A stretch of DNA of 34,542 nt, taken from positions 1 through 34,542 of IMG/VR virus record IMGVR_UViG_3300037634_005735; one strand, given 5' to 3'. This stretch comes from a virus (taxonomy: Duplodnaviria; Caudoviricetes). Position numbers and translations under genes: made by a program. Under the pieces are notes generated by a model that was not told the origin of the DNA, made no database searches, and was given only the letters and a program-made list of their open reading frames with translations. Shown in pieces: positions 10,899 through 30,076 of the stretch; within the stretch, counting starts at the first letter, position 1, and every line of letters begins with the position of its first letter.

Positions 10899-11588
10899 GT
10901 GGCCACTCCAGCAATCCCATCGGCGGAATTTAACTTCCCAAACCTGCTCTCTCCTCCGCCGGGACTGACGGTTGATGAGATGGATGTGGGGCAGGCATTT
11001 ACCCAAAATGCCAACTCCACAAACGAGGGAACAGACAAGCTAAGGTCCCTGTTGATATATTTCCACATGTTTGAAGAGGTGGAACTTGTTGATAATAATG
11101 GCTTTAAGAGGGTTTGCTTGGTTAGGAGAACGGGCAAAGAGGAGGCTCCCACCACATGCTCCTTGGGGACCTTGTTTACCGACCCCACCGATGGCGATAA
11201 GAGATACTTGCAACAGGGGACGGTGAATTCTCTTACCGCTCACACAGTAATTGGCGGGGAGGACACCAGCTTCCACCCAGAGACGAGCAGTTTGTTTGTC
11301 AGGCTAAACATAACAATGGAAACCGAGGGGGAAGGGGAAGATGCCTTTTTCACCGGGTTGTGGGCGGCCAATTCCCCCCCGGAACTGGTTCAAGACGTAT
11401 CCACCCCTATTGATGATGAGATTCGCTCCAGCAAGCCTTCGGACCTTAACATTTACGCCCCCTTGGGGAGATGGGACGAAAACACAAACGGGGATCTGGT
11501 TTGGAGCCCTGAAGGGTGCGGGGCGGTCACCTTCCAGATATGTCTGCTAAACGCCTATTGGGCCCAAGCCCATTACTTTAGGTCATAA
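10899..11588 (+). CDS. Hypothetical, probably structural (acidic, beta-rich) protein
   Basis: 229 aa with protein-like composition; no long minus-strand ORF covers this interval; TAATG coupling to the next gene. Confidence 0.7.
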   Translation: MATPAIPSAEFNFPNLLSPPPGLTVDEMDVGQAFTQNANSTNEGTDKLRSLLIYFHMFEEVELVDNNGFKRVCLVRRTGKEEAPTTCSLGTLFTDPTDGDKRYLQQGTVNSLTAHTVIGGEDTSFHPETSSLFVRLNITMETEGEGEDAFFTGLWAANSPPELVQDVSTPIDDEIRSSKPSDLNIYAPLGRWDENTNGDLVWSPEGCGAVTFQICLLNAYWAQAHYFRS

Positions 11589-12882: not shown

Positions 12883-15131
12883 ACTACAGGAGGCTGCTGT
12901 CCGGGCATATTATCCTGCGTGTTTATGGCCTGAGGATTTCCGCTCCCTCCGGAGGGAGTGCCTTGTGGGGGAATCTGGAAGCCGGGCTGGATAATCTCGT
13001 CCACATGGGAAACCTGCATTGCCTTTAGCATCTGACGGTAAAGCTGGGCGGTGCGAACCTGTAATTCTGGGGGGAGAGAATAAAACTCAATAACCTTGGC
13101 GCTGGCCTGCTGCGCCTGAACAAGCTCCTGCTCATTCTTGTATCTGGTCATCTCTAGGCGCACATCCATGTCCACCTGCTTATCGACGTTCTCTGGGCCG
13201 AATTGCAGCATTTGCGCCGCCTCGTCCTCTGTATACATGAATGCCTCCCGCACATCGAGATAGGCAAGGGTGTATACGCAGAACTGCTTGAGGAGGTCCT
13301 CTAGGCCATCTTGCAACTGGCTGAGGTAGATGGAGAACATCTCCTGACCGGATCTCTCGATATTCTTGACCCCGGTAGCCAGTTTGGCCGTATCCATCCC
13401 GAGCATGGCGGCATCGTTCACATGAGAAACTCCGCTCATGTTGATTGCAACCTGCATGAAGAACTCGATCTCCTTGTAGATTTCCCGGCCCTTAACGTCA
13501 TAGAGCGGGATGACCTTGAGGATGGTCTCTGGGTCGATGTTACCCTTGGGGGTGTATGTCCTGCCGCCATTAAGCTCCAAGTGGGGGTTCTCTTCTCCCT
13601 CCAGAGTAAGCTCAGGGTTCCAGAAGATGACATTCCCAGAGCGGGACTGAGAGTGGTTCCACCTGTTGACCAAGAGGTCCACTACTTCTTGCAAGGGCTG
13701 GAACACCTCCATGGTGCCTATCCCGTGCCAGCGCCCCTCTACCCGGTTTACCCGGGTGACATTAAACGGCCTGCGGCCATCAGGGGTCCGGTTTGCAACA
13801 TAGTCGTAGAACAAGGGCCTCCGGTTCTTCTTGTCCAGCATGATGACGATGTCCTCCTGAACGCCGTCTTCGTCCGCATCAAAATGGATGTAGACCTCAG
13901 CAATCTCCACGACTGGCTCTCCCTCTAGCCCCGTGTCCGTTTTCCTGTTGTCGTCTTCGGAGTTGACCTTGTCGTGCCCCGAGCTTTCCCCGAGTTCTGG
14001 CCTCTCCTTAGTCCCGAATGCTTTCCTGTTGTCGTCAATGCGAACAAGCTCTTGCAACGACTCGAAAATCTTGGTGGCCGTCTCCCTAGTGGTCTCACCC
14101 TCATTATCTAGGGCCGAAACATAAAGGGACGCGATTTCGATTGCTGGCTTGTCATACAGGTGGACGCATATGTCGGCCTCTCCAAGGCTTGGCGCGTCGA
14201 GGGGGGCTAAGAAGTCCTTGTAGTAAATAGGCTTGGACTCTGCCCCCCGATACTGGACCTTCTGCCTTGGGACAATCTGCACCTCAAACCTGAGCATTTC
14301 CGGGCTTTCAAGCCCCTCTGGAAGCTGTGTTTCGCCATCCCTAACCAGAATCCAAATGGGATCGCTTACCACCCCGGGGTCCTGCTCGCTCTGGGTCGCC
14401 ACTTGGGCCCACTGGTCATCCTCATAGATGTAGTCGGCATCTGCTGCCACAAAGGGAACACCCGCCGAGTCCACCGCGATAGAGGCCTCTTTGTTGAATT
14501 GGGTCCACTCTTGGCGGTAAATGGTTTTGGAGACCGTCTCCCCCCTGATGATAGCTCCCTCGACGGCGGCCATAATAGCCCCCTTGAGGTCGGCCTCCTT
14601 GGCCTTATACTTGCAATACTTGTCTGTTACGTCCGCAGGCTCTTCATCGCTTTTGCTCACCGGGTAGGCCCCGAACCATGGCTCGGTCCCAAGGAAGTAG
14701 CTAACGGCGCGGGAAATCTGTTGTTGGGCAATCCTCCTAGACAAGGGAACCGTGAGGTTGGATTCAGCGAAAATCCCCCCGACCAAGTATGCCCTCCAGT
14801 CGATCTGGTTATGGAAGGTCATCTCGTAAAGCTGCCTTTTGCCCATAAAGGACCCAGCGGCCTGCTTTACCGTGTCGTCGTGCCCCCTGCCATACCAGCT
14901 CGCTTGCGACGTTGACCCGCGACCAAGCTCATTCTCAAGGGTAGAGATCCTAGCCATGGCGTGAGTGATCAGGCGGTCCTCCTGCCGCGCAGTAAGTTGC
15001 AACGGGCTGCTAAAGACAACCTTGGGCTTCTCCTTTTCCCCGGCGTTCAGGGGTGGCTTAGGGGCGGTAATCACCTTCTCGGCAACCGCCTGAACTTGGC
15101 TTATGGCGCCAGATTGTCCTTCTTCACTCAT
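12879..15131 (-). CDS. Portal protein (P22-like podovirus type)
   Basis: 750 aa; RRPFNVTRVNRVEGRWHGIGTMEVFQPLQEVVDLLVN, DTAKLATGVKNI and a Q/P-rich C-terminus; upstream of scaffold and MCP. Confidence 0.85.
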   Translation of the reverse strand: MSEEGQSGAISQVQAVAEKVITAPKPPLNAGEKEKPKVVFSSPLQLTARQEDRLITHAMARISTLENELGRGSTSQASWYGRGHDDTVKQAAGSFMGKRQLYEMTFHNQIDWRAYLVGGIFAESNLTVPLSRRIAQQQISRAVSYFLGTEPWFGAYPVSKSDEEPADVTDKYCKYKAKEADLKGAIMAAVEGAIIRGETVSKTIYRQEWTQFNKEASIAVDSAGVPFVAADADYIYEDDQWAQVATQSEQDPGVVSDPIWILVRDGETQLPEGLESPEMLRFEVQIVPRQKVQYRGAESKPIYYKDFLAPLDAPSLGEADICVHLYDKPAIEIASLYVSALDNEGETTRETATKIFESLQELVRIDDNRKAFGTKERPELGESSGHDKVNSEDDNRKTDTGLEGEPVVEIAEVYIHFDADEDGVQEDIVIMLDKKNRRPLFYDYVANRTPDGRRPFNVTRVNRVEGRWHGIGTMEVFQPLQEVVDLLVNRWNHSQSRSGNVIFWNPELTLEGEENPHLELNGGRTYTPKGNIDPETILKVIPLYDVKGREIYKEIEFFMQVAINMSGVSHVNDAAMLGMDTAKLATGVKNIERSGQEMFSIYLSQLQDGLEDLLKQFCVYTLAYLDVREAFMYTEDEAAQMLQFGPENVDKQVDMDVRLEMTRYKNEQELVQAQQASAKVIEFYSLPPELQVRTAQLYRQMLKAMQVSHVDEIIQPGFQIPPQGTPSGGSGNPQAINTQDNMPGQQPPVV
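12943..12958. repeat. CCCTCCGGAGGG palindrome, copy 3
   Basis: CTCCCTCCGGAGGGAG, 16-bp perfect palindrome in the portal's disordered tail (TPSGGS). Confidence 0.9.
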
Positions 15132-18100
15132 CGCTTATCCTTGAGTTTTTTGTTGAATGTCTTTCTTGCCTCTAATTGGAAGTCGATGTTGCCGTAGGCG
15201 ATTCCTCTTGCCGTATCGCTGGCTCTCCTCCGGGCCTTCGAGATGTCGCCAGCAGTTCTAACGGAAATTTGCTCCTCTTGCCAGACCCTTTGATAGGCTC
15301 GTTGGAAGATGTCATATTGCAACGAAGTCATCTTGTGCTTCTGCTTGAGCCCGGTCGCCTCGTCAGTGTAGACGTATGCATTGCTGACACGGGAAGGCAT
15401 TATAAGGTCCTCCCTGTAGGGCTCCAACTTCCTCCCTCTGTTGATCATTTGGTCGTAATACTTGGGAGTGTAGGGCTGCTGCCTTGTAATCCACGAACCA
15501 AATCCCCGGGGCCTCTTGAGAAGGTCTCCATATGCGTCCCTTTGTGATCCGGGGGCAAATTTGTTTCTAGGCAGGTCTATGCCAAGCACCTTGCTGTCCA
15601 TGCTGGGATACATCTCGTAGAGAAGAAGTTTCCAGACGGGGTTGGCGTCTCCAAGAGAAAGCCTAGCATCGTATGTAAGGTTCCCATCCCTAATAGGCTG
15701 CCTGAACACGTTGGGGATTAGGAATGTCGCAAATTGCCTCGCGGCCCATTTCTCAGCAGAGATTTTGCCACTAGCTATGCCGAAGGCGTCATTCATCCCC
15801 CTCAGCGAAGTTTTGTCTGTTAGCTGGCCAAAAAGAGTGTCCGTGAATAGTTCGTATCCGGCTTCAGCTATGTTGCGCTCTTTTCTGCCAAGCCTCTTAA
15901 ATGTCTTCACCCAGTCTACTGTGGTCCCTAGGGTTATGGCCAACGGATCAATTCGCCCATAGTCGAAGGTGACTCCCTCCTCCCCCTCCGGAGTAACCAT
16001 CTCCCCTATCGGGATAGCGCCAAACAGCAATGTCGCATCTCTTTTTATCCGAATCTTAAACGGACCCAGCCCGGCCCTGATGGCCGCCTCCCTCTCTGCT
16101 GGAGCGCCCTTTGTGAACTTGGGCATGGAGCCAGTAATCAGAATTGGCTTCTCCTCGTCATCTTCATCCCCTTCAAACATCGCCAAGATTGCTGCTGCCA
16201 AAACGGTCGAAAGAAGCTGCTGGGATAATTTCCTGATGGATTCTGCCGCCTTGGGGTCTGGGTTTCCTCGGTTTTTGGCTAGATACTGACTGAGCTTAAA
16301 TGAGTGGTAGGCTACTGAGAAGGGGTTGGGGATTCTCGCATACCCCTCTCGGACAAGGTTGGCCAACACCCTTGCAAATGGAATTATTGTAATGCGGGTC
16401 ATCCCGAGAGCGATTCGCAAGGAGTCCATCTTCGCAACCTCGGTAAGTCTTATCAGGCCGGATTCTGTGACCCTTGAAACTTCCTTGGATGCCCTCAGGC
16501 CCTTCTCTGCGTTTTTGACTTTCTGATCAATTGCGTTAATTGCATAAGCAACCGCATCTCCCACAGACGCCTGTGCCCCTGTAAGATCAGATGGGAGGTC
16601 CTTGGTGAAGACAGAAACATTGGCTTCTTCTGCCGCGAGCGTCCAACTAGAGGAGCCGGGGACGGTCATCTCCCTGTGGATGAACTGCTCTAGTTCAGCG
16701 CCCTCAAGGCCTTTTCCAGTGCCCACCCTATAGGCGATTCCGCCCACATGGGAGCCTGCGACAACGAACCTCATAAACTCGTCCACTCCCATGTTGAACC
16801 TAAGGATGTTTCTCCCGAAACCGCCAAAGCTGACCTTCCTTTTAGCGCCCTTTTCCCCCAAGGCTCTTCTGGTCAGGGCTGGTCTTTCCCACTGTTTCCC
16901 AAACATTTTTTCTAGGCCCTGATCGACATAGTCGAGCAAGTGGCCCATTTGGTAGCCACGCACCTCTTCGTGGGTTTCCCCCCTGTATTCCCCTCCCTCA
17001 ACGCCGCCTTTTACGAAGGAGTTGAAATAAGCTGTCTCGGTGTCGTAAGCGAGGAATCCTTGGTATATCGCCATGCCAAGATAGGTCTTCATCCCCCTTG
17101 CGATATACTTGAACTCTCCCATCTTGGCCGCCTCCGGGTGCTTTGCCAACTTGTTCAAAAGAGACTCTGCCGCCTGCTCCCCAATCATCCTGTATCCCGC
17201 GAAGGGGACGGACATAAGGTTCACAAGAACAGTTTTGGCCGAGAACACGTTCCCATACCAAGACCCGAACGTCCGCGTCACATAGTCAATGTCAATGTCA
17301 TCAAGGGATCTGAAGGCGGCCTGAACGTGTATTGGGTTGTTTACATTAAATCCTTTTTGGGCGAGGGCCTTCACGGACGCCTTAAATGATCGGTCTAGGA
17401 CCTTATTGACATCCTGATCGGTTCCGGGCTCCGCCTTTCCGGACAGGGGGGTGCCGCTTGCAAAGGACCCCATGTTGTTCTCGTTATATCCGCGCTTAAC
17501 CAGCTCTCTCACCTTGGGCTCCAGAAGACCTCTGAACTTCTCCATGGCCCTTCTTTGCCCGGCCTTAGAGACGCCAGTCGCCGCCTCAATGGCCGCTGCA
17601 TCAGCCCCCTCTCTGGCCATTTGCACGACCTTCCGGAATTTGGGGGTTAGCTCTCCAAGGGCCGCCTGATCGGTGGTCGTCCCAATTGCGACCCCGTCAT
17701 TGGAGGAGTTGAATATTTCCTCTACAGACATGCCGTCACGACTAAGGACCCGCTTGGATTGCTCCAGCCTGTTGCGTTGCAACTTTTTCAGGTCCTCATC
17801 AAAGGCCGCTTTGCTGGACTTGGGGACACTATACCCCGCGTCCTTCTTTCCCCCGTGCTTCTTTCTTAGGGCCTGCATCTGACCCGGGGGCACCGTATTC
17901 ATCGCCATGCCAAGTGCATACGCCGCTCTTTGTGCCGGGGTCTGGAACGGGTCCCTCATCGAGGTCATCGTTCTTGCAATTTCGCCTCGCAGCTCTTGCA
18001 AGGCGTGGGCAAAGGCCATCACCTTGTCAATTTCAGCTTGGTTTCCAGATGTCAGTGCTTTCTGGAAGTCATCTGCCAGAACCTGCATCGAGGCTATTTG

Positions 18101-21100
18101 GAACTCAGGAGTTCCGGGCTGCCCCAGCTTTTCCGCCGACTCAAAGACCCTCCTCCTGATCTCGTCGTCGCCCTGTGACTTTCTCTCTGCGGAGGCCCCA
18201 GTCTTCCACTGAGGGAAGTTCTGCGCGATGAATGTCTCTTCGTAGATTTCCTGAGAAACGTCATATGCGTTCCGGACCTCTGGGGTTTCCCCCACCTTGG
18301 CCCTAGAGGGGTCGCCCTTGACGACTTTCTCCCCAGCAGCATTCCTAGAGTCTCTTTTCTTGAACAACTTGAGGCGCTCCCGAAGGGTCTTGCCTCTTTT
18401 GTCCATTCTCCCCTTGGCCCTTTCCGCGCCCTCCTCGGAGTCTTTTGGCCCCCTCTGGAGGGTGGGTCCTACAGTCCCCCCTCCCGTTTCCTGATCGAGG
18501 TCATCTTTCCCCTTATCCGAGACATCTGGCTTTCTAGCGCGATCATCTCCCTTTCTGCTTCTTTGCGGCCTGTCAATTCTAAGGCCGTATCCTTTAGCAC
18601 CTTGCCCAGTAATAAATGCCTCCGCCTCTTCTTCATCAAAGTCTTGTTCAAACCTTTCATAGTAGTCGTGTAGTGTGTCTGTTTTCTCTTTTGATTTCCT
18701 TCTCAGGACATCAATATCGTTGGTTCCCAAAATGTCTGCCACCGTTGCAAACCCTTGCAAGGAGGTTGCAAGTCCACCAGCAGAAAACGTGAGCCCCCTT
18801 GCAAGCTCCTGCCCCTCGCTGTTGATGTCTTGATGCAGCCCTTCGTGCAAGGCGACCCCCCCCACCTCGTCCAGAAACAACTGGTATAGGCCTATGTGAT
18901 AGTTTTCCTCCACGCCTCCAGCTACCTCAATGATCTCCTCCATGCTATGGGTGTCTCGTACATGCCACAATGTTGACAGCGGATCATGGTAAATGACGGT
19001 AGGGGGGGCATTCATCGGCTGGTCAGCCTTGGTCTGCTCGTCTGTAATATACGATATAGGAAGGTGAAGTCCGTATGCGTTGGTCCCAACTGCAAACCCG
19101 GCAAATCCCGCCCTGCCAAATTGCTCGTTACTTTGGTATCTCGTCGCGAGATACTTCAGGACCCTTCCTTGGACCTGATAGTAATCCTCTGCAATATCGG
19201 CAACCAGTGGGTCAGTCGCGAACTCTTCAACAAGTTCGGAGTCAAGAGTCCCCGACAAATCTAGAAAATGAAACTCGCCGGGAACGGCTGCGTCTCTGGG
19301 ATCTTGCCCCCACTCCTTGACGGCGGCGTACCGAGCAAACTTTTCCGCCTCCACGCCATACTGCTCTTCATTGCGCCACGGCCTGCGAATAAGAGCAGTG
19401 TCCCCTCTGCGGTCTATCCACTTCTGACGCCTTTGGATGTAAGCCATTTGGGACAGCTTGCCCATGAATAGCTCGATTTCGTCTTTGACCTCTTTCGAGA
19501 CAGAGTTTCTGTCGAGGCTAAACGGGTAACCTGCCTCCCCGGCGTCAACTTTCGATCTTATATTGATCGCAATGCCACTAACTGGGACAAGGGCCTCCTG
19601 ATCCACGCCAACAGCAAAATTTTCTTCAAATTGATAGATTGTTCTATTGAGTATTTTGCCCGTAACCGCGTTGCTTTGATGCTTCTTGTCCCCGTCCTTC
19701 GCGAGAATTTCTATCTCAAACAGGTCCGTTTCAATGTTCCCGTCCTCAATCACGACCCAGTCTTCGTCAGGATAACTCGCTTCGTGCGCCGCGTATCCAC
19801 TGGGCTTCCATCTCGCTATGCCAGCGAAATCACTAATCGATGGCCCCTTTAGCGCCCCGCTCCAATCTGTCTCAATTTGTTTGATGATTGGGCCGCCGGG
19901 ACCGGGGAAGTTCTCCTGAATACGTTCTTTATGTGCCTCGATTCCAGCAATGACGTATTTCCTTGTTATCTCTAGTGCCGCCTCTGGCGAGTAGTCATCA
20001 AACCAACTCCTCGGGGAAAGGCCGGGGTCTATGGGGGTGCTCGCGGGAGAAGTCGCCCCTTGTTCTACATACCCGGCGTCCTCGTATTCCCTCCCGACCC
20101 TGAGTGTGGGAGTTAGCTTTGCCGCGCCCTCTACAAAGGCAGTGGCGTTAGTCCAACCCCTCCCCCACTTTTCGTTAGCCTTGTCATTCGCATTCGGGAA
20201 TCCCAAAACATATGCCGTCCCCGTGTCGCCACCCTCAGGGGCATGGCTCACGGTCAACTTCATGCCCGGAAGGATTTCTGTTTCGTTCCCGGGCTCCAGC
20301 ATATTTTCTGGAGTTTCTATTCTCCCACGGGTTAAGTAATCCTCGTATGCGCCGGGGCCTAGTTCCAGTTGCGTCAGAATCCTCTCGCCTTTTTCGTTTT
20401 CGTTGATCGTGGACACCCTGACATTGTTGGGGCCCATCAGGAAAACGAGCTTTGCAATCCCAAACCCGCCGCCTTCTCCAACGCCCTTGCCCGAAACGAA
20501 GGCAGGGAGGAATTTCGTCCATACAAGTTCAGGAGACATTCCCACCCCATTGTCGGACATCGCGAATAGATTCCCTGCATAGGCGTCTCCATTCTTGTCC
20601 ACCAATTGCACCTTGCCACTGTCTTGCCACGCGAACCCTCCCTGATTGACCAAAATCGTGGGGTGGTAGGCCTCAAACCCTTTGGGGAAATCTCCAAAGT
20701 CAGCACTTGCCTTCCAGTTTCTGACCATGTTTTCCACAAGGACCTCGTCTTGAATACCCGCCTTCAGAGCATCTGCGCGAACAAACTCTTCTATCCTATC
20801 GTGCAACTTGGCCTCTTCTGCGGCCTTCTTCTTCATGACGGCATCCACAGAGTTCTGGAAAAGCTCTTTGCCCAAAGTCCCAGTGGGGTCGGTGCCATAC
20901 ATATTGGCGCCAACCAGCTTCAACATTCTCTTTATGTCGAAGGTGGAGGACTCCTTCAGGTCCGCTGGCTTGTCTGCGTCAGCGTCATCAATTCCTCGCT
21001 GCAATGCCGGGGCATTGATGCGCGGCACGATCTTCCTGAAGTCAGCCTCCAGTTGCTTGTCTAGTTTTCGGGACTTCAGGAATTCCCCCAGATGGGTGGG

Positions 21101-24100
21101 CCACGTTAATTGGTCATGAAAGCGCCCCCAGTGACGCCCGATCATGAGATCAAATGCAACGGCCTTCCCGTTCTCTATTGTGAAATTATTCGACCCTGCG
21201 TCACCAATGCTCAGATCCTCTGAGGGATCGTAAAAATTATATGCGTCAATAGGGATCATCCCTATATCGATCATATGCAATACCAGTTTCCCCTGCTTGA
21301 GGACCTTGCCCTTGCGCTCTAGGCTTTCATAGTCGGGAGCTACGGGCCCCAACACATCCGAGTCTTCTTGCGAGTATGGCTGCCTGACATGTGCATGGAG
21401 CTTTCCGTTCTTAACTATGAACCCAAGAAGCTCGTATGTCGCTTCGGGGAAATAGTGGTTGTGCCATATAAGCCTATTGAAATACTCCAAGAAGGAATCG
21501 TCGCCATGGAATACCTTCTCTACATACTTCCCCTTGTGGATAACCCAGTTCTCGTATCCACCCATCCCCACCGCTGCATGGTCGTGGAAAAATCGAGCCG
21601 AATCGTTGATGAGGTCATTATCCTTTGCCCATCGCTTCAGGAGCTTCCCTTCGACCTTTTTGACCCCCGGGTAGGCATACATTCTGGTTTTGGGGTCAAC
21701 CCCCGCCGCCCTCAGGACCCCATTAAACGCTTCGTCTGTTTCGTAAAGTCCTCTAAGGTGGGCGTAGGCTTCTTCGCCCGACTTGCCGATAGTTCCGAGG
21801 CTCTTTTCAAGGACTTCTTGTGACGGTCCCGCCTCCGTTTGGCGAATTCCCGTGATGGTGAGTTCCTTCTCGCGCTGAAGGGTGGGGGTGCTTTGTCCTC
21901 GTCCTCGTCCTCGGGGCCCCTTAGTTCTTGGAGCGCGACCCGTGGCAGGGACCAGTCTAGTCCCATCTTTTTGAGGCTTCTCTGCACCCTTTTTAGTTTC
22001 TGGATCTCGCTTTCCGACAAACCATTCAGGATAGAGGGATCGACTTCTCCCGGTGATGATTTTTCTTGCTCTGGCATTGCTGTTATTCTGCCACGTTTTG
22101 GTGGCCTCAGCTAGATGATTCGGTTTTTTTTCTCCGCTGGGATGGATAAGGCGGATTCCCTCCCAAGCGATTGACTGCATTTGCCGTGGCTGGATACCCC
22201 TGCGGCGAGCGGCCTCTCTGTATGCATCAGCATACAAATGATACAGCCCCGAAACTCCCTCAACTGCCGAGCCTGCCGCTCCCTTGCCGCCGAAGTTGTG
22301 TTCCACCGCAAGTGCTGTTATCCCCCACGGCATCAAGTGCGCTGCCGCCACCGCGTGAGTGTCCATGGTGACATCTCCCATCGGGCTATTAGGCGCGACT
22401 ATGTTGTTAAAGAAACTCCGGACCTTGTGTTCGGCTCCGAGAATCCTGTTAAGGTTTTCAAGGCTCCCATTCTTTAGAATTGAAATTGCATCTGCAAGTT
22501 GGGCGGCAGACCCCCAGCCATGCGTCGAGGGGGTTCCTTCTTCCCCGGATCGCAATTGAGCTTGTGTGGGGCTGTTTCTTTGGACATGCAAAATATCCCC
22601 CTCCGGGGTCATCACATCGTATTCGGCCCCCCAGTGGTGATCAGCCAGCAATCTCAGGGCCCACGCTTGAGCTTCCGCGTCTATTTTCCCTAGCTGGTTG
22701 ATGGTGTAACCATAAAGGCCCTCCATGATCACACGCCTATCATCCCTCTTCATCTCATCAAGCCTCCTGTTATAGGCTTGCCGCAGTGATGTTTGCCTCG
22801 GCGTCTCGCCATCACGCACTTTCTTCCTTGCCGACGGTGCCGCCTGCGCCTTGGCGATCATTCTCTCTATGGCTTCCCCATGAACCTTGGGGTCTATCGC
22901 CTCGTTCCGGTTATTCGCCCAAATATCAATAACCTTCTTGGCCTGTGCCGCGTTCTTGAACCAGTTATTCTTCGGGGAAAGAGATGCAATGACGCCAGCA
23001 ACCTGAACCTTGGTGTATCCGTATCTCTTTGCTAGGCGATTTGCAAGTTTGCTGGCCCCGTCATACCAATGCGATGCCCTTTCTCTTACTTCCGTTGGCA
23101 GGGCGTCATGAACGGCCAAGATATTTTCGACCATCCACTCAATTGCCTTTTCTCTCTTTCTGTGCGGATTCTTCTCTGACCGAATGCTTTGCGGGAGATG
23201 ATCGTAATCAAACGACTTCATGTGCGCCGTCAGGAGTTCCTCGCTCACCGACGCTATGCCAATGTTACTGCTGGCGTCCCGGCGCTTTCTGGAGGTCGTC
23301 GCCGTTTTCCTTGCAGTCCCAACGCGGAACCTGTCATTGCTTGCATTGGGCTTGGATGCGGCTGATTTCTGGAGGGAGAGACCGGATGTCAGCCTGCCTC
23401 TGATGGACTCCCACTCTGCCCCAAGATCAATTCCTGCGTAGAACTTGCCATCATGCTCAATAACCTTGGCGGAATTTCCATATATGGGCTTGTAGAGGTT
23501 TTCTACCAGCTTCTCGGCGGCGGCGCGTTTCTTGAATCCGGTTTGAGGCCTGCCATTAGGAAGCGCGAGGACCAAGTCCCTTTCGTCTACCGCAATGGCT
23601 CCATTGAGAAGATTTCTGTGTAACCGGGATACTAGCTCGGCATCAGCCCCCAAGGAATTCCCAACGATTTCGTTGTCTGCAAATAGCTCGGCAAAGGCTA
23701 CTCTCGCCTCGTCAGTGAGCTTATACCCTCCCTCCTTGGTTACGTCCTTATAGATGGCGTAAATGGCTGGGGCTAAGGTTGAAAAAGCTCCCTGTAGACC
23801 CGGTTCCGGAGACTTGCCTTCCTGCAAGAAGGCCTCAAGCCCTTCTGCCATTGTCTCGATAGGCCTTGAGGGATTGACCTCCTCTGCCCATGCGTTCATT
23901 TTGGCGGCATTTTGGGGCCCGATAGCCGCATCTAGAAGACTTCCTCTGGACGCGGGGTCCTGAATCTTCTGCAACACATGAACGAACTCATGCAGAAGAG
24001 TGGACGCGTCGCCTTTTTCAGAAAGGCCAATGTAAACCCTAGAGCCAGCGGGGTCTGCTTCGGCTATCCCCTTTACTTCAAGTTCGCTCTTGGCCCTTGT

Positions 24101-27100
24101 CTTCCGAACATATTCAGCATCTGCTTTTTTGTATTCGGTTTTTTGATCCTCTGTCGCCTTCTCTATCTTCTGGTCTACGTCTACCAGCTCCTTTTTGAGT
24201 TTGGCCACTTTGGGGTCAACTCCCCCCTCCCAGACAAGGGCAAGGCCCTCCGTTACAATTGCCGATATCTCTTCAGTTATCTGTTCTTTACGAGATACAA
24301 GCTGTTGCAATTTTTGTATCCCCTTTTCAGAAGGCCCTTTTCCGACCAAAGCCAAGAATCTGTCTTTGGCTCTTCGGAGTGCTGGGATGACTGCGGGGTT
24401 TCCATCTGCCACATCGGCGGTAATGGAGGTAACCATCCTACTGGCTGCCAAAGCCCTACGAGCGCGTTCCGTGAAGGTCGCGTTTTCCAGAACGGAGCTA
24501 AGGCTTTCATTTATATTTGTAACTTTTCCCAAGTAAGACTTAACCGCAGATTCAAGGGCGCCCGATCTTGCTTCTTCCCCGGCTTTAGAGGCTTTCACCC
24601 ACTCATCCACAAGGGAGGTAAACTCTCCGCCCACTTTTACTACGTTTACAAAGGCGTAGATAGTCTCTTTTGAGAGATCCGTCTTTGTTGACACTGCCGC
24701 GACCATCCCCTTGATGGCTTTCAGGACCATGTCCAGCTCGTCAACTGACAGGCGTCCCCTTACGACCTGCGAAGCGTACGCGGTTCTAGTTGCTTCATTA
24801 ACCGTGTCCTCATACTTGTGCGCGTTTTTCTCTCTCGCCTCTGCGCGAGTTGCAAAGGTTTGAGTTCGTCCCCCGGGGAGGGTTACTTCGTATTGGCCTC
24901 CCCGTAGCCTTCTAATATTTGGAGGAAGAACCACATCTTTGCGGTCTGTGATGCGGCTTTCTGGAACGGCCACGCCGAGATCGGCAAGAACTCTATCGCT
25001 TGTGTTCTCGGCAATGAGGGCCATCGCCATGCGCTCATAAAATTTCAACTCCTTCTCCAGCGTGGGGTTGCCAGCAATGATAGTTCTGATCCGGTCTAGG
25101 AACCTCCTGAGGTATTTGAGGAACAGGCCAAGGGGGCCATTTCTTACCGCTCCTCTGGCCGCCTTGCTTCTCCCCCCCTGCTTGATGGCCTGCCGCATCG
25201 TGGCCACTAATAGTGGGTCCGTGATTAGGTTTTCTACAAAGTAGCGAAGCACATCGGCATCAGAGGCGTCCTCGCCTTTCAGCGTCGCGCTCCTAGCCCT
25301 TTTGGCCATTAACTCTTGGGCCTTAGGCGGGAAGAAGTCAAAAAGGGCTTTGGCCTCTGCGTCAGAGAGAACCCCTTTGGTGCCCAACTTGGCAATGATT
25401 TCAATTTCTATCCTTCTCTGCTTCTGGTCAGACATTCCGTCCACCTTGGAGCTGAGAATTACATCTCCATCTTCCGTTATGACGTAATTTTTCCCTTTGG
25501 GAACGGGAGACTCCTCGGTCTCGGTTATAACCTTCCTAACTAGGCCAAACCCTTGCAACGCGGAGGCTACGTCCCTGCTCTCCTTTGGAGTCTTGGCGGC
25601 TGGCTTTTTCTTGGCTGGAGCGGTTTGGGTTGTTGGGGCGTCTCTGCCAATCTCCTCCACTGAGGACAAAGTCTCAGGGGCATTTATTTTGGCCGCCGCA
25701 GCATCCCCGGCCTCTGACTTGGTTTCCGCCTCTACTACAAACGTCTTGGTCTTCCCTCTGCCAACATTGATTGTGGCCCTCCACTTCTTCTTCCCTCCGG
25801 AGGGAGCGGCCTCTTCACCCGCGACAGGTTTTTCCCTAACGACAAATTCCCCGTCTTTTACTTCGACAACCTCGTAGAGGTCCTTGTCGATCTTGGGAGT
25901 CTTCCCACCGGAGAGCGTTCTTAGCCGAGTGTCTGCTTTTTGCCTAGTGTCATACGGCTCGCCTTTCGCATTTTTTATGACCTGTCTCCCTCCCTCAACG
26001 GAGACGCCCTTGACCTTGCTGGGGTCAGCAAGGCCCTCCCGCGCTTTCGGCGCTGCCTTTTCAGGCTTGGCCGCTTCCTCAGGCTTGGCCGCTTCCTCAG
26101 GCTTGGCCGCTTCCTCGGGCTTGGCTTCTTTGGGGGCAGGTTCGGCTGCTTCCTCCTTAGGTTCGGCTACCTTGGGTGCAGGTTCGGCTGCTTTGGGCGC
26201 AGGGGCCTCCCTGACTTGCTTGAGTCTGGCTTCCTCATTTAGAGATATTAAAAATTTGGCCGCATCGGGATCTAGCTGCCTAACCGTCCTTATCCCGTCC
26301 TCTGTAATTACAAGCTGGCCGTCTACCTCTCTAATAGCAGGATTCCCCTGCTCGTTTGTCGCTTTGTTTACCGCCCTGAACTCGGTTGAGGTTAGCTCGC
26401 TATCGTCATTAACCTTGCCGCTTGCAATTTTAAGCAAGCCCCGAGCCTGATGCACTTTGTCGATTTGGGCTTGCGCTTCCTCGACAAGGTTTTCGTTCCC
26501 TAGCTCAGAATAGTAGTTCCTGCTTCCAGCGGCGGATTCCTCTATGTTTTTGAGATTCTTGTGAGCCTCGATTGCAACTTGCAAGTTTTTGGCCGCAACG
26601 CCACCATCATTAGAGCCTTTCCCGGGGTTGAAGTTTATTAGCTCCAGCCCGGCCTCAACCTCCCCTTGGGTATATTCTGTTTTCCCAAAGACATCGCCAA
26701 GTGCCGCACGGGCAGTCTTGGGGTCAGAGAAGTTTTCTGCCGTCATCCCGGTTTGCCCGGCAGACATGGTCGCCCCCATGAATCCTCCAAGGACCAAACC
26801 AGCAACGCCAGCGTATGCTGATCGACCAAGGACCTCGGAAAACGAAGCGTCATCAAAGGATAGACTAGAGATGAGCTGATCGGAGAATTCTTCTGCGCCC
26901 TCGTAGAGGGAAGCGCCTGCGACGGACTTGACTGCTGATATGAACTTTTCTTTTCTTTTTGTCCCCTCGGCTCCAATGGCTCTCCAGAAATCTCTAACGG
27001 TCCACTGGTTTACTACTTTTGGTGCGAAAACCTTTTGAATGCCCGTAGTCCCAAAAGCCCTGACCACGCTCGCGGTAATCACCCCTGTAACCATCGCCCT

Positions 27101-30076
27101 GCCCCGCACCGCTGGGCTGGAAGCAAGTTCATCTTCTTCCTCTTCGGTTAGAATCCTCCCAAGCTTCTCTTGGAGCTTTGACTTGGACTCTTCATAGTAT
27201 AGTCCCCATGATAGCCCCGCAGACTGGAACCCGGCTCCGGCAGCCGACCCGCGAATGCCCCATTTTGCAGCAGCTTTATCTAGGTGTTTAACTTTCTCCT
27301 CGGCGCTCTTTGCCTTGCTTAGGGCTCCTTTAGTGACACTGCGATTGATGGACCTTTCGATCCCCTTGGTCATTGCCTTTCTTCCCACTGTTGCCCCCGC
27401 TCCGCCGGGGACAAGCGAGAACAAGAGGGACGGTCCTTCCTCAAGCAGGATGTCCGAGGCCTTGGAAAGGAGCGCAAAAGGGCCCCATGTCATTTTCGTC
27501 CCCGCGAAATCTCTGCCTTCTCTCTGCTCGGCCAAATTGTCAGATGCCCATATTGTCGCATCTTTTGCTCCGGGGATTGTAAGGACTGCGCCTATTCCTG
27601 TAAGAGTTTGAACGAACTTCCCGCCCCCCATCATAAGGCTTCTAAAGGGCCTTGATGCCGTTGCAACGAATCCGTCTCTCTTGCCTTCATACTTGGCCAC
27701 ATAGGCGGCCATCTGGTCATTGAAGCTGGGGATCTTCTCCCGGGCCTTTGCTTGCATGTCACGGAGGCTTTCCATGCCCTCCTCAAGGTTTCGGGCGCTC
27801 TCCCTGAGATACGAAGCGTCTTCCCCTGACTTCTCCTTTGTGGAAATCTCATCCCTCAGCTCTGCCAACTTCTCGCCTCTTTCTTGCAAGCCAGACTCGT
27901 AGCTTTTCCAGTCATAATAAAATTTCTTCCGGAACTCGGCTGGGGTAGGAGTCCCGCCGGGGACGGCGTATGCGGCTGAAGCGCCGTCATATATGCTGCT
28001 TGCATATGTAGTTAAAAGCCTTTGATAGGTTTGCTCGGAAAGATAGTGGTCCCTAATAACTTGCGGGGCCTTGGAGGCGTTGATAGCCGCCTTGTATCCA
28101 TCCGCATCGAACAGGTTTGTGTCCGGATGGAACAGCATGGTTCCATCGGACCTAAGCCTTATAGCCTCTTGGTCTGCCTTCTTTGGCCACGGCTTGTGGG
28201 TCTTCTCGACGTCCTCAAGGGCCTGAAACCTCTCCTGCTCCGAATACCCCTTTTCGTCGAACCACTCGTTGATCCTTTTGTGCTGCCCGGGCTGGTCGCC
28301 GTATTGCTTCCCACGCTTCGCTGACTTTACAGCAATGGCACCGCGCCGCATTAGGGCATCGAGCATACCACCAGCCGTATATGCTAAATTCTCGTAGAAA
28401 GGGCCAGAAGTAACGTCCGTGCCTGTTTCGTGCCGGAAGGACAATGGCAGCCCCATTTCGGCTTCGCCTTTGTTTAACCGGACACCAAAGCCATGCTTGC
28501 CAATTGCCTTTAGGGACCCCGGGCTGGAGCCAGCCATCTCATACAGCTCGGTTGAAAGCTCCGCAAAATTCTCGGAATTTTTCGCAAAGGCCTGCTGAAC
28601 TTGATCAGATATGTTGCGCTCCAGCTCTAATACCCTTTGCAGGATATACTCCTTTTTATTTTCGGGAGTATTAGTCAGCTTGCTAATGCGGTCATCTCCC
28701 GGGACCCCCTCGTCTGCTGTATGCCCCGCAGGGCCTTGCAGGAAATATTCAATGTCATCAGGAATCGCCTTATAGCGGCCCCTGATGAGCTTCTTCATCT
28801 CTTCGTAAGATTCGTGGATCTCTTTGTGGTAAGAGGGAGCGATGGTCTCCCCCCTGCCTTGGGTTCCCAATAATCCGGTTACCTCTTTTTGGCTCCTCGA
28901 TATCCCAGATATGGTAGACTCAATGGCCTCTTTTTGTTTCTTCTCCCACTCCTCGTGACGGGCCTTGGTGAAGCCCCGCATGTCCTCAATGGCATCACCG
29001 ATAATCGGCCTAAGGAGATCCAAGGACTCGCTCCTTGCCTTTACCTCTTTGACTCCTTTGTCGTATTCAAACCTCTCCCTCAGGTAGTCCTTCGTGGCCT
29101 CTGCCCACTCTCCCCTGAGGGTAACGCGCCCTCTCTTAATCTGATCCGGTGTCGCCCCGGATTGCAACCACTCCATGAACCCCTCTTCAAGTTCTTGGAC
29201 GTTTTTGTGATATGCACCAGCGGCCTTCTTCTCGTCCTCAGAGACGGATTTGGCTCGCTCATTATTAATGCCTACCTCTCGGTTATAGGCGTCAATAAAC
29301 GCGCTTGTTCCCTTGGGGTCCTCCTCAGCTTCTGGGGCCTCCCATGTTCTTCGCCCGTAGGTGCCGGGTCGGTCTCTTGCAAGATCCTCGGGGAAGCCCT
29401 CTGAGATTCTCCCCTGCCTCTTGATCTGTTGGTCGATTTCGGCTATTTCCGAAACAGACTTATCATCAGCATCTAGAGCTGCCCTTTGCGCGGCAATAGA
29501 CTGCTGTTTTTGCTCCAGAAAACTTTGCGCCGCTTCATCGCCGTTTTCAGCTCGTTCACGAAGAGACTCAAGGTAGTTTAGGTCTTTATCTAAATCCTCT
29601 TCAGCCGATCTTCTTTTGGCCGGGGACATCGGGGCCCTAGCCGGGTCTTTCCTGATGGCATCTATCTGGTCACCCAGACCCGAAATCTTGGCCTTGGCGT
29701 TTGCCCTGTCGGACTTTTCCCTTTGGAGGTCTTTGAGGGTCTGCCTGTGATCAGCGACCTGCTCGTCAGAAAGGGATAGCCTCAATCTGCCATCTTCGTC
29801 CTCTAGAAGATAATCAGAAAGCCCCTCATCCGAGGCTCTGGTTCTGGTGATCTTGTTCTGCCTAGCAACCCTATCGTTCTGGATTCTTTCAACTTCGGCA
29901 TCCCTAGCCCGTTGCTCTCTCTCTTTCTTCTCCTTCCTCAGTTCTTGCTCTCTATTTAGAGCGTCGAGTCTCCTCTGGTGCCTAGCTACACCAGAGCGAA
30001 GTTCGGATAAGCCATCAGAGTCCCCATAAGGATTCTGGATAGGCGCATCCTTATAAGGGTCCTCTATATCAGCCAT
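15128..30076 (-). CDS. Giant polyvalent internal virion / ejected protein (4982 aa)
   Basis: N-terminal coiled coil; Gly/Ala hydrophobic segments (~aa 810-1110); P/A/E/K linker; HEFVH (aa 2029); HhH-GPD-like domain; polyvalent kinase; GHKL ATPase plus HEGLH; C-terminal ejection-protein-like region (PFARVLAN...LITGSMP...YGRIDP...DKTSLRG). Stop overlaps the portal ATG. Confidence 0.85.
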   Translation of the reverse strand: MADIEDPYKDAPIQNPYGDSDGLSELRSGVARHQRRLDALNREQELRKEKKEREQRARDAEVERIQNDRVARQNKITRTRASDEGLSDYLLEDEDGRLRLSLSDEQVADHRQTLKDLQREKSDRANAKAKISGLGDQIDAIRKDPARAPMSPAKRRSAEEDLDKDLNYLESLRERAENGDEAAQSFLEQKQQSIAAQRAALDADDKSVSEIAEIDQQIKRQGRISEGFPEDLARDRPGTYGRRTWEAPEAEEDPKGTSAFIDAYNREVGINNERAKSVSEDEKKAAGAYHKNVQELEEGFMEWLQSGATPDQIKRGRVTLRGEWAEATKDYLRERFEYDKGVKEVKARSESLDLLRPIIGDAIEDMRGFTKARHEEWEKKQKEAIESTISGISRSQKEVTGLLGTQGRGETIAPSYHKEIHESYEEMKKLIRGRYKAIPDDIEYFLQGPAGHTADEGVPGDDRISKLTNTPENKKEYILQRVLELERNISDQVQQAFAKNSENFAELSTELYEMAGSSPGSLKAIGKHGFGVRLNKGEAEMGLPLSFRHETGTDVTSGPFYENLAYTAGGMLDALMRRGAIAVKSAKRGKQYGDQPGQHKRINEWFDEKGYSEQERFQALEDVEKTHKPWPKKADQEAIRLRSDGTMLFHPDTNLFDADGYKAAINASKAPQVIRDHYLSEQTYQRLLTTYASSIYDGASAAYAVPGGTPTPAEFRKKFYYDWKSYESGLQERGEKLAELRDEISTKEKSGEDASYLRESARNLEEGMESLRDMQAKAREKIPSFNDQMAAYVAKYEGKRDGFVATASRPFRSLMMGGGKFVQTLTGIGAVLTIPGAKDATIWASDNLAEQREGRDFAGTKMTWGPFALLSKASDILLEEGPSLLFSLVPGGAGATVGRKAMTKGIERSINRSVTKGALSKAKSAEEKVKHLDKAAAKWGIRGSAAGAGFQSAGLSWGLYYEESKSKLQEKLGRILTEEEEDELASSPAVRGRAMVTGVITASVVRAFGTTGIQKVFAPKVVNQWTVRDFWRAIGAEGTKRKEKFISAVKSVAGASLYEGAEEFSDQLISSLSFDDASFSEVLGRSAYAGVAGLVLGGFMGATMSAGQTGMTAENFSDPKTARAALGDVFGKTEYTQGEVEAGLELINFNPGKGSNDGGVAAKNLQVAIEAHKNLKNIEESAAGSRNYYSELGNENLVEEAQAQIDKVHQARGLLKIASGKVNDDSELTSTEFRAVNKATNEQGNPAIREVDGQLVITEDGIRTVRQLDPDAAKFLISLNEEARLKQVREAPAPKAAEPAPKVAEPKEEAAEPAPKEAKPEEAAKPEEAAKPEEAAKPEKAAPKAREGLADPSKVKGVSVEGGRQVIKNAKGEPYDTRQKADTRLRTLSGGKTPKIDKDLYEVVEVKDGEFVVREKPVAGEEAAPSGGKKKWRATINVGRGKTKTFVVEAETKSEAGDAAAAKINAPETLSSVEEIGRDAPTTQTAPAKKKPAAKTPKESRDVASALQGFGLVRKVITETEESPVPKGKNYVITEDGDVILSSKVDGMSDQKQRRIEIEIIAKLGTKGVLSDAEAKALFDFFPPKAQELMAKRARSATLKGEDASDADVLRYFVENLITDPLLVATMRQAIKQGGRSKAARGAVRNGPLGLFLKYLRRFLDRIRTIIAGNPTLEKELKFYERMAMALIAENTSDRVLADLGVAVPESRITDRKDVVLPPNIRRLRGGQYEVTLPGGRTQTFATRAEAREKNAHKYEDTVNEATRTAYASQVVRGRLSVDELDMVLKAIKGMVAAVSTKTDLSKETIYAFVNVVKVGGEFTSLVDEWVKASKAGEEARSGALESAVKSYLGKVTNINESLSSVLENATFTERARRALAASRMVTSITADVADGNPAVIPALRRAKDRFLALVGKGPSEKGIQKLQQLVSRKEQITEEISAIVTEGLALVWEGGVDPKVAKLKKELVDVDQKIEKATEDQKTEYKKADAEYVRKTRAKSELEVKGIAEADPAGSRVYIGLSEKGDASTLLHEFVHVLQKIQDPASRGSLLDAAIGPQNAAKMNAWAEEVNPSRPIETMAEGLEAFLQEGKSPEPGLQGAFSTLAPAIYAIYKDVTKEGGYKLTDEARVAFAELFADNEIVGNSLGADAELVSRLHRNLLNGAIAVDERDLVLALPNGRPQTGFKKRAAAEKLVENLYKPIYGNSAKVIEHDGKFYAGIDLGAEWESIRGRLTSGLSLQKSAASKPNASNDRFRVGTARKTATTSRKRRDASSNIGIASVSEELLTAHMKSFDYDHLPQSIRSEKNPHRKREKAIEWMVENILAVHDALPTEVRERASHWYDGASKLANRLAKRYGYTKVQVAGVIASLSPKNNWFKNAAQAKKVIDIWANNRNEAIDPKVHGEAIERMIAKAQAAPSARKKVRDGETPRQTSLRQAYNRRLDEMKRDDRRVIMEGLYGYTINQLGKIDAEAQAWALRLLADHHWGAEYDVMTPEGDILHVQRNSPTQAQLRSGEEGTPSTHGWGSAAQLADAISILKNGSLENLNRILGAEHKVRSFFNNIVAPNSPMGDVTMDTHAVAAAHLMPWGITALAVEHNFGGKGAAGSAVEGVSGLYHLYADAYREAARRRGIQPRQMQSIAWEGIRLIHPSGEKKPNHLAEATKTWQNNSNARARKIITGRSRSLYPEWFVGKRDPETKKGAEKPQKDGTRLVPATGRAPRTKGPRGRGRGQSTPTLQREKELTITGIRQTEAGPSQEVLEKSLGTIGKSGEEAYAHLRGLYETDEAFNGVLRAAGVDPKTRMYAYPGVKKVEGKLLKRWAKDNDLINDSARFFHDHAAVGMGGYENWVIHKGKYVEKVFHGDDSFLEYFNRLIWHNHYFPEATYELLGFIVKNGKLHAHVRQPYSQEDSDVLGPVAPDYESLERKGKVLKQGKLVLHMIDIGMIPIDAYNFYDPSEDLSIGDAGSNNFTIENGKAVAFDLMIGRHWGRFHDQLTWPTHLGEFLKSRKLDKQLEADFRKIVPRINAPALQRGIDDADADKPADLKESSTFDIKRMLKLVGANMYGTDPTGTLGKELFQNSVDAVMKKKAAEEAKLHDRIEEFVRADALKAGIQDEVLVENMVRNWKASADFGDFPKGFEAYHPTILVNQGGFAWQDSGKVQLVDKNGDAYAGNLFAMSDNGVGMSPELVWTKFLPAFVSGKGVGEGGGFGIAKLVFLMGPNNVRVSTINENEKGERILTQLELGPGAYEDYLTRGRIETPENMLEPGNETEILPGMKLTVSHAPEGGDTGTAYVLGFPNANDKANEKWGRGWTNATAFVEGAAKLTPTLRVGREYEDAGYVEQGATSPASTPIDPGLSPRSWFDDYSPEAALEITRKYVIAGIEAHKERIQENFPGPGGPIIKQIETDWSGALKGPSISDFAGIARWKPSGYAAHEASYPDEDWVVIEDGNIETDLFEIEILAKDGDKKHQSNAVTGKILNRTIYQFEENFAVGVDQEALVPVSGIAINIRSKVDAGEAGYPFSLDRNSVSKEVKDEIELFMGKLSQMAYIQRRQKWIDRRGDTALIRRPWRNEEQYGVEAEKFARYAAVKEWGQDPRDAAVPGEFHFLDLSGTLDSELVEEFATDPLVADIAEDYYQVQGRVLKYLATRYQSNEQFGRAGFAGFAVGTNAYGLHLPISYITDEQTKADQPMNAPPTVIYHDPLSTLWHVRDTHSMEEIIEVAGGVEENYHIGLYQLFLDEVGGVALHEGLHQDINSEGQELARGLTFSAGGLATSLQGFATVADILGTNDIDVLRRKSKEKTDTLHDYYERFEQDFDEEEAEAFITGQGAKGYGLRIDRPQRSRKGDDRARKPDVSDKGKDDLDQETGGGTVGPTLQRGPKDSEEGAERAKGRMDKRGKTLRERLKLFKKRDSRNAAGEKVVKGDPSRAKVGETPEVRNAYDVSQEIYEETFIAQNFPQWKTGASAERKSQGDDEIRRRVFESAEKLGQPGTPEFQIASMQVLADDFQKALTSGNQAEIDKVMAFAHALQELRGEIARTMTSMRDPFQTPAQRAAYALGMAMNTVPPGQMQALRKKHGGKKDAGYSVPKSSKAAFDEDLKKLQRNRLEQSKRVLSRDGMSVEEIFNSSNDGVAIGTTTDQAALGELTPKFRKVVQMAREGADAAAIEAATGVSKAGQRRAMEKFRGLLEPKVRELVKRGYNENNMGSFASGTPLSGKAEPGTDQDVNKVLDRSFKASVKALAQKGFNVNNPIHVQAAFRSLDDIDIDYVTRTFGSWYGNVFSAKTVLVNLMSVPFAGYRMIGEQAAESLLNKLAKHPEAAKMGEFKYIARGMKTYLGMAIYQGFLAYDTETAYFNSFVKGGVEGGEYRGETHEEVRGYQMGHLLDYVDQGLEKMFGKQWERPALTRRALGEKGAKRKVSFGGFGRNILRFNMGVDEFMRFVVAGSHVGGIAYRVGTGKGLEGAELEQFIHREMTVPGSSSWTLAAEEANVSVFTKDLPSDLTGAQASVGDAVAYAINAIDQKVKNAEKGLRASKEVSRVTESGLIRLTEVAKMDSLRIALGMTRITIIPFARVLANLVREGYARIPNPFSVAYHSFKLSQYLAKNRGNPDPKAAESIRKLSQQLLSTVLAAAILAMFEGDEDDEEKPILITGSMPKFTKGAPAEREAAIRAGLGPFKIRIKRDATLLFGAIPIGEMVTPEGEEGVTFDYGRIDPLAITLGTTVDWVKTFKRLGRKERNIAEAGYELFTDTLFGQLTDKTSLRGMNDAFGIASGKISAEKWAARQFATFLIPNVFRQPIRDGNLTYDARLSLGDANPVWKLLLYEMYPSMDSKVLGIDLPRNKFAPGSQRDAYGDLLKRPRGFGSWITRQQPYTPKYYDQMINRGRKLEPYREDLIMPSRVSNAYVYTDEATGLKQKHKMTSLQYDIFQRAYQRVWQEEQISVRTAGDISKARRRASDTARGIAYGNIDFQLEARKTFNKKLKDKR
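18469..18660 (-). CDS. Candidate nested +1-frame gene (63 aa, helical) in the linker after the GHKL cassette
   Basis: VLKDTALELTGRKEAEREMIALESQMSRIRGKMTSIRKREGGL reads as an amphipathic helix where the host frame is R/D/K/G low-complexity; the stop lies 2 nt before the PTLQR codons. Confidence 0.45.
   Translation of the reverse strand: MKGLNKTLMKKRRRHLLLGKVLKDTALELTGRKEAEREMIALESQMSRIRGKMTSIRKREGGL
18800..20950 (-). other. GHKL (Hsp90/MORC-like) ATPase module with downstream HExxH, within the giant protein
   Basis: MYGTDP..KELFQNSVDA (E aa 3071), DNGVGM (D aa 3175), GGFGIAK, GT; later YPFSLDR; HEGLH at 18833-18847. Confidence 0.8.
21130..21620 (-). other. Polyvalent-protein Ser/Thr/Tyr kinase domain within the giant protein
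   Basis: GMGGYENWV..VEKV..YFNRLIWHNHYFPEATYELLGF..VRQPY..IGDAGSNNF..AFD. Confidence 0.75.
21712..22077 (-). CDS. Candidate nested +1-frame gene in the linker after the HhH-GPD-like cassette
   Basis: MPEQEKSSPGEVDPSILNGLSESEIQKLKRVQRSLKKMGLDWSLPRVALQELRGPEDEDED is protein-like up to the PTLQR junction; CAATG start context as for MCP and scaffold; TGgCAGAAT 7 nt upstream. Confidence 0.55.
   Translation of the reverse strand: MPEQEKSSPGEVDPSILNGLSESEIQKLKRVQRSLKKMGLDWSLPRVALQELRGPEDEDEDKAPPPFSARRNSPSREFAKRRRDRHKKSLKRASELSASRAKKPTPTLEDFTKQTKRLMGS
22150..23160 (-). other. HhH-GPD DNA-glycosylase-like (DUF7178-type) domain within the giant protein
   Basis: WYDGA..VAGVIASLSPKNNWFKN..KVRSFFNNI..VTMDTHA..YADAYREAA..PRQMQSIAW. 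Confidence 0.6.
25792..25805. repeat. CCCTCCGGAGGG palindrome, copy 4
   Basis: TCCCTCCGGAGGGA encoding APSGG in an interdomain linker. Confidence 0.9.
26061..26200 (-). repeat. Coding tandem repeats: 3 x 18 bp (KPEEAA) plus imperfect AEPAPK units
   Basis: tcaggcttggccgcttcc at 26061, 26079 and 26097. Confidence 0.9.

Follow-up and report, generated by a model that had tools for sequence, protein, structure and literature searches.

The window, the whole 34,542-nt stretch of Caudoviricetes DNA that was analysed, carries a phage head module on its minus strand, with a portal gene (15131-12879), a major capsid gene (9518-7986) and an adaptor-like gene (6786-5851). These adjoin a giant gene whose product combines DUF7178, Kinase-PolyVal, GHKL ATPase and zincin domains, a setting and composition that place it in the class of polyvalent proteins as defined in the main text of Iyer et al. 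2017 (PMC5512222). No MuF domain was detected in the window. Two ORFs of 229 and 336 aa (10899-12598) run on the plus strand, against the direction of the head module; they are flanked by the portal region and a 447-aa gene and have no Pfam or PHROG match. The best-matching sequencing runs are marine metagenomes. The features of the locus are as follows.

15128..30076, minus strand: host gene, located in the head module immediately upstream of the portal gene and coding for a polyvalent protein of 4982 aa that includes DUF7178 and Kinase-PolyVal domains
24277..24510, minus strand: third conserved nested +1 ORF, 77 aa, Trp/Pro-rich, with ATG and length identical in three of three phages
21712..22077, minus strand: sibling candidate nested +1 gene of 121 aa, closing the DUF7178 cassette
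18587..20995, minus strand: cassette of GHKL ATPase, middle domain and HExxH zincin, host aa 3028-3830, net charge -53
18833..18847, minus strand: zinc-binding motif HEGLH (host aa 3744-3748), which the nested ATG follows at a distance of 62 codons
18661..18690, minus strand: leader of the candidate nested gene, G-poor and A/C-rich, without a Shine-Dalgarno (SD) site, one G in the last 15 nt
18469..18660, minus strand: candidate nested +1-frame gene, 63 aa, ATG to TAG, net charge +11, heptad repeat in residues 35-56
18587..18660, minus strand: dual-constrained part, where the last host helices (YERFEQDF...GAKGY, aa 3806-3830) lie over nested codons 1-25
18469..18586, minus strand: linker part, host aa 3831-3869, of low complexity in the host frame and better conserved in the +1 frame (0.47 vs 0.37)
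18452..18466, minus strand: PTLQR cassette-boundary motif, aa 3871

Motifs of the PTLQR/PALQR type at aa 2731 (21886-21872), 3023 (21010-20996) and 3871 delimit the cassettes of the giant protein, and two relatives carry about 600-900 additional residues between the kinase and GHKL cassettes. PTLQR, PALQR or PSLQR also recur at cassette boundaries elsewhere, five times in protein P0001, and are possible cleavage or recombination marks.

The ExxxNxxDA, DxGxG and G-rich lid motifs of GHKL ATPases are invariant in 62 cassette sequences. Profile matches of the cassette are to TRAP1/HtpG (E 1e-11), and the best Foldseek match of its model (pLDDT 75.5) is Hsp90/TRAP1 (E 2e-10), with a low whole-chain TM score. 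The HExxH motif is likewise invariant in the 62 sequences, but it had served to select the loci. Pfam matches to WLM/YgjP were obtained in stand-alone relatives only and below the cut-off. In the window's clade the residue ten past the first His of HExxH (window 18847-18815) is Glu, where most other cassette lineages have His, and the third zinc ligand may have changed in this clade. In cultured phages the zincin end has no match, and what these phages share with a stand-alone relative is limited to rIIA-type ATPase domains. A scan of the genome collection returned two weak partial matches, which were left out of the counts. Stand-alone cassette proteins exist and end close to the position where the nested gene starts; two of them (P0045 and P0058) have an N-terminal hydrophobic, signal-like extension, which suggests an exported form of the cassette outside phage polyproteins.

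The original prediction placed a +1-frame ORF inside the giant gene, closing the GHKL cassette. Such an ORF is present: 63 codons in the +1 frame of ORF 30076-15128, complete and lying wholly within another gene in a different frame. Its stop codon (18471-18469) ends 2 nt ahead of the first PTLQR codon (18466), as had been described, and the quoted host peptide, +1 peptide and leader are all exact. Since the giant gene holds about 30 stop-free +1 stretches of at least 45 codons, the length of the ORF is not beyond chance; 11% of 46-codon +1 windows in the locus are open. Among four other sequencing runs, two gave contigs over the entire ORF, a third covered part of it and the fourth gave no coverage, with zero letter differences. 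Because these contigs agree letter for letter, the ORF is not an assembly error, and no population variants of it occur among them. Short contigs of two other runs show a gapped match of about 50 nt at 18949-18900 followed by unrelated sequence, which may be a chance match to another organism.

The leader had been said to resemble the real leaders of this phage, and the comparison bears this out: 12 of the window's own 15 genes have no SD site (three have one), and the 18660 leader is similarly G-poor. Of 150 +1-frame ATGs in the giant gene, it precedes one of the nine that have no more than one G in the 15 nt before them. Two later starts were rejected: the leaders of 18636 and 18546 are richer in G, 18636 is ACG in one relative, and the +1 signal begins already at 18660. 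No internal sigma-70 promoter was found in 18300-19300, and RNA structure at the start region is weak, like that of shuffled sequences.

The host frame had been described as degenerate over the ORF. This holds after GAKGY (aa 3830) but not over nested codons 1-25, where host identity is 0.50-0.76 and the ORF starts inside a conserved host helix; the basic N-terminal half of the nested protein is partly the product of this acidic helix read in +1. The proposed amphipathic helix also survives in part. Its 100-degree hydrophobic moment (0.30-0.34) is unremarkable against a host median of 0.24 and a 90th percentile of 0.43, but a heptad at residues 35/39/42/46/49/53/56 is hydrophobic in three of three close phages.

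The whole giant genes of two related phages (G001 and G002) were codon-aligned with the window, giving three pairwise comparisons that are not independent. Mismatches at first codon positions exceed those at third positions in seven of 166 windows of 30 codons. Six of these fall within three +1 ORFs (24510-24277, 22077-21712 and 18660-18469), and the seventh is a poorly conserved stretch at aa 1771. Identity in the +1 frame exceeds host identity in four of 142 windows of 35 codons, all within the same three ORFs, and the ATG column of each is identical in the three phages; that of 18660 is retained despite a Tyr/His difference in the host frame. Over the rest of the cassette, mismatches at positions 1/2/3 are 0.41/0.34/0.63, with host identity 0.47 and +1 identity 0.26. 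The corresponding values are 0.42/0.17/0.33 (host 0.50, +1 0.54) over nested codons 1-8, 0.24/0.14/0.29 (0.76, 0.59) over codons 9-25 and 0.48/0.32/0.30 (0.37, 0.47) in the linker. The +1 signal thus starts at 18660, with constraint on both frames over codons 1-25 and, in the linker, mainly on +1. The +2 and in-register antisense frames were rejected as candidates, having stops in relatives and no family-wide peak comparable to that of +1.

Ten of ten lineages compared within the window's clade have no +1 stop between codons -24 and +21 relative to the host GY; the lineages were treated as independent, and the stretch tested was placed on the window's own ORF. Synonymous shuffles gave 0.002 and 0.02 for the two halves of this stretch. 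A control window just upstream is open in three of the ten. Homologues could have had +1 stops, or conservation following the host frame only; the comparison showed neither, the +1 frame being open and conserved. By these sequence measures the conservation of the ORF exceeds chance, and its frame is under purifying selection. The start varies in the window's wider clade, where an ATG stands at -24/-25 in five of 11 lineages. Four lineages (L015, L019, L020 and L016) have an SD-like run in the host SQGG codons ahead of an ATG at or near GY, so part of this wider clade may use an additional start further downstream, which would give peptides of 25-35 aa.

The survey of the cassette family covered 161 loci, taken from the best 80 of 83 and the best 80 of 127 matches of two scans; 157 have both motifs, and they form 63 clusters at 70% identity. 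Among these loci, the +1 frame is open over HExxH+70 to +100 in 60 of 63 clusters. Elsewhere it is open in 6-24 of 62-63 clusters in nine windows from -200 to +40, in 34 at +100 and in 17 further on; clustering at 50% leaves it open over HExxH+70 to +100 in 42 of 45. One of the three exceptions has a shorter nested ORF, another a later one, and L061, a long branch, lacks both the linker and the ORF. In 31 of 60 clusters the first +1 ATG comes 0-5 codons after an in-frame stop, and an SD site (-5 kcal/mol or better) is found at this ATG in 36 of 60, against 16% of 803 control +1-frame ATGs elsewhere in the cassettes. On this sequence evidence the nested frame has its own translation start signal, an SD site in these 36 clusters and a G-poor leader in the window. 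The nearby stops, the SD enrichment and the G-poor leader together favour independent initiation over frameshifting.

The host segments flanking the cassette are diverse, falling into 42 groups among 60 downstream and 47 among 58 upstream, so the nested gene travels with the cassette and not with its neighbours. A viral scan with the main family of small nested proteins returned 44 loci, some on contigs used already, and in all 44 the small gene is nested in a long ORF; it lies behind HExxH in 42 of 42 with sufficient upstream DNA and behind the GHKL motif in 41 of 41. Six close members of this family show linker mismatches of 0.21/0.13/0.08, with host identity 0.71 and +1 identity 0.85. The small ORF (<150 aa) directly follows the enzyme domain and is tightly linked to it, but the enzyme is not C-terminal as in MuF-type toxins: the host ORF extends at least 150 codons past HExxH in all 63 clusters. 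No GHKL cassette that ends its ORF and is followed by a separate gene was found among the 157 loci (from the best 80 of 83 and the best 80 of 127), and no stand-alone cassette gene with DNA among the best 80 of 127. In a quick, provisional FastTree phylogeny of the cassette, the nested gene is kept on both sides of the deepest split. Stand-alone proteins are interspersed among the polyprotein lineages in this tree, so a stand-alone ancestor is not demonstrated. A selected +1 gene is thus tied to the GHKL cassette independently of the flanks, but a pairing of enzyme and small partner is not a general rule for cassettes: neither the window's kinase cassette nor the extra cassettes common to G001 and G002 have a nested +1 signal.

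Most clusters encode a small protein of 70-75 aa. The main family (34 sequences) is confidently modelled as a four-helix bundle (pLDDT 91.6); it belongs to no named family, and no Pfam family is common to its 34 members. Its profile found only five proteins of 34-167 aa, its fold has no match in BFVD at E<=0.001, and the best matches in a PDB set are generic helical bundles (Z up to 7.9). A match to the colicin D immunity protein, at rank 30 with Z 5.2, was not trusted. An Atlas search with one member gave nothing usable.

The window's clade forms one supported branch of the quick tree and has shorter nested proteins. Comparison with the main family gave a best HMM E-value of 0.3, not above 172 decoys, and an hhalign probability of 0.2%. 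The two kinds of protein thus occupy the same place in the same frame with no homology detectable at sequence level, and so the fold and SD data of the main family apply to the window's clade by position only. The 63-aa protein has no Pfam or PHROG match; a homologue search with it gave no candidate, a viral scan returned only its own contig, and the best feature score in the Atlas search (0.81) is a lead only. Complex prediction for the window's cassette and the 63-aa protein scored 0.01 against a mark of 0.32, with controls not folded, and is evidence neither way.

The other nested ORFs bear on how the overlap may have arisen. The 18660 ORF had been likened to that at 22077, and the two do share the +1 offset and the position of the start, 64 codons before its PTLQR for the 22077 ORF and 65 for the 18660 ORF; the former, however, extends about 56 codons beyond the motif. 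Synonymous constraint is stronger in the 24510-24277 ORF than anywhere else in the gene (0.11-0.15); this ORF lies over a well-conserved host segment, not over a linker, and has no Pfam match above the cut-off. For the DUF7178 cassette we collected 40 loci (L233-L272) with 28 distinct sequences. In 14 of the 28 the host ORF ends 51-73 residues past the last DUF7178 motif, making the enzyme C-terminal, and 11 of these 14 copies are followed, in the +1 or +2 frame, by one unnamed partner family (seven of the partners built the profile and four were found with it; two of the 11 have it as the first part of a longer ORF). Five of 14 internal copies carry this family as well, nested in +1 (E 1e-15 to 1e-7; 307 decoys). 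The 22077 protein resembles it weakly, with E 0.03 for a relative and a window copy not above the 307 decoys.

The small gene had been predicted to be an overprint on the host gene. Because the DUF7178 partner family occurs both downstream and nested, the direction in the linker is probably the reverse: the linker would be the overprinted frame, with the small gene older and the host read-through newer. An enzyme gene and an overlapping downstream partner gene would have been captured together into the polyprotein, and the enzyme frame would have come to read through the partner gene, leaving a low-complexity linker. We infer this capture model from the sibling DUF7178 cassette, which displays both the separate-gene and the nested state and so offers a rare view of an overlap arising by read-through of an older gene.

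Judged by its sequence characteristics, the 18660-18469 ORF belongs to the same kind of embedded same-strand genes as Rz1, comS and the hidden insertion of phage ShiLan. In the Rz/Rz1 embedded spanins of lambda, a same-strand +1 nested gene codes for a product that partners that of its host gene. The nesting is alike, but the proteins are unrelated to those described here; Rz1 is a lipoprotein in a short lysis gene. The comS gene of Bacillus subtilis is a small other-frame gene inside the giant multi-domain gene srfAB, and its product acts on the protease complex MecA/ClpCP, but in the available text of PMC12915044 ComS does not target the product of its own host gene and is not part of a mobile cassette. 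In ShiLan, an out-of-frame HNH insertion in a phage methylase gene is a hidden gene that appears in the host frame as a stop-free loop, the host reading being secondary. That insertion encodes a selfish homing endonuclease and may be there or missing at its site (PMC11855218), whereas the gene described here codes for a helical protein and is found in nearly all cassette copies. A hidden homing endonuclease of this type was rejected for our locus: the 63-aa sequence has no HNH motif, and the main-family model is all-helical.

Another parallel is found in the MuF polymorphic toxins, where a phage head-module gene with a variable enzyme domain has directly behind it a small ORF that belongs to no known family and is a proposed immunity gene (89.4% of 191 toxin genes in PMC5576092). 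Here, by contrast, the enzyme lies within a polyprotein, whose frame continues over the whole of the small gene, and toxicity is putative. DUF7178 and its partner have the small-ORF-after-enzyme layout described in that text (PMC5576092), in both a free and a buried state. In our reading the 63-aa protein and its module may work like a toxin-immunity pair without the C-terminal enzyme position of the MuF type. The prophage enzyme Bxa is likewise restrained in the producer by binding immunity proteins (Bsi, BAH), but these come from separate genes and the chemistry is that of an ADP-ribosyltransferase, as far as the available text of PMC11699363 goes. With the polyvalent proteins of PMC5512222 the giant protein shares its place among virion genes, its multi-enzyme make-up, Kinase-PolyVal and an HExxH zincin. 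The main text of that paper has 0 mentions of GHKL, HSP90 or linker and uses "nested" for a hairpin fold only, while its supplements could bear on domain naming. In the available text of a review of jumbo phages, GHKL is mentioned for topoisomerase and rIIA only (PMC7824862). A literature search, with subscription journals and most supplements outside it, found no published account of nested genes in polyvalent proteins. What is added here is the family-wide tie of a GHKL module to a nested gene, and the free and buried states of a sibling cassette.

Taken together, the 63-codon frame is very likely a real protein overlooked by annotation. It is very probably translated, and the protein probably acts on its own module. 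That it is the module's own immunity-like inhibitor, produced together with the polyprotein but not packaged with it, has in our view an even chance. Translation of a single late mRNA would start at the internal ATG as well, yielding a small helical protein alongside the giant one. It would bind the ATPase-protease module and silence it during virion assembly, and could possibly guard against the same module from a superinfecting relative. Remaining in the producer cell, it would leave the module active once injected into a new host.

The small protein could instead be an activating partner, such as a co-chaperone, an adaptor, a preferred substrate of the ATPase-protease or a pre-packaging folding aid. 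The two-way linkage of cassette and small gene fits this equally, the N-terminal part of the module resembles Hsp90/TRAP1, and the Hsp90 family works with co-chaperones. ComS, nested in srfAB, acts via binding a protease adaptor complex (available text of PMC12915044). Nevertheless we consider an activating role unlikely: an unfused cofactor would need separate packaging and injection, and the small proteins diverge beyond recognition between clades while the catalytic motifs are invariant, a pattern that immunity would fit better. It is also rather improbable that the gene serves some other function, acting for instance on a host protein or DNA, and was simply captured with the cassette. Physical linkage alone would hold it there, the window's protein is basic (net +11), and unrelated-looking proteins sit at the same spot in different clades, but the small family is never found away from the cassette in 44 loci, the gene is kept across the deepest split of the cassette tree, and the sibling cassette has its own, different partner family.

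An explanation with no independent gene, in which the frame serves as a frameshift entry giving a shortened polyprotein with another tail or tunes ribosome traffic, seems very improbable. The frame does overlap the domain end and stops near the cassette-boundary motif in three of three close phages, but the in-frame stops just before the first ATG in 31 of 60 clusters, the SD enrichment there and a product family modelled to fold on its own all speak against it. Chance openness of +1, arising from the composition of a G/R/D/E-rich linker, is largely refuted and barely credible, for although open +1 stretches of such length are common in the giant gene, they would not account for the inverted codon positions, the excess of +1 over host identity, the kept start column, the SD enrichment and the family-wide openness.

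What looks like a disordered linker becomes a gene that goes with one enzyme module and has been missed by annotation in dozens of lineages of uncultured phages. If the small gene is a partner of its module, this would explain how several harmful enzymes can be made and packaged without damage to the producer cell, and a candidate inhibitor for each cassette would permit cloning, assay and structural work. More tentatively, and with somewhat less than an even chance, giant polyvalent proteins may partly be strings of captured enzyme-immunity operons, whose effector cassettes move with an immunity gene that survives in +1 within an apparently floppy linker. If so, hidden genes would mark the injected domains that are dangerous to the producer, and each such domain would come with an inhibitor at hand, in this case against an uncharacterised Hsp90-like, ATP-gated protease.
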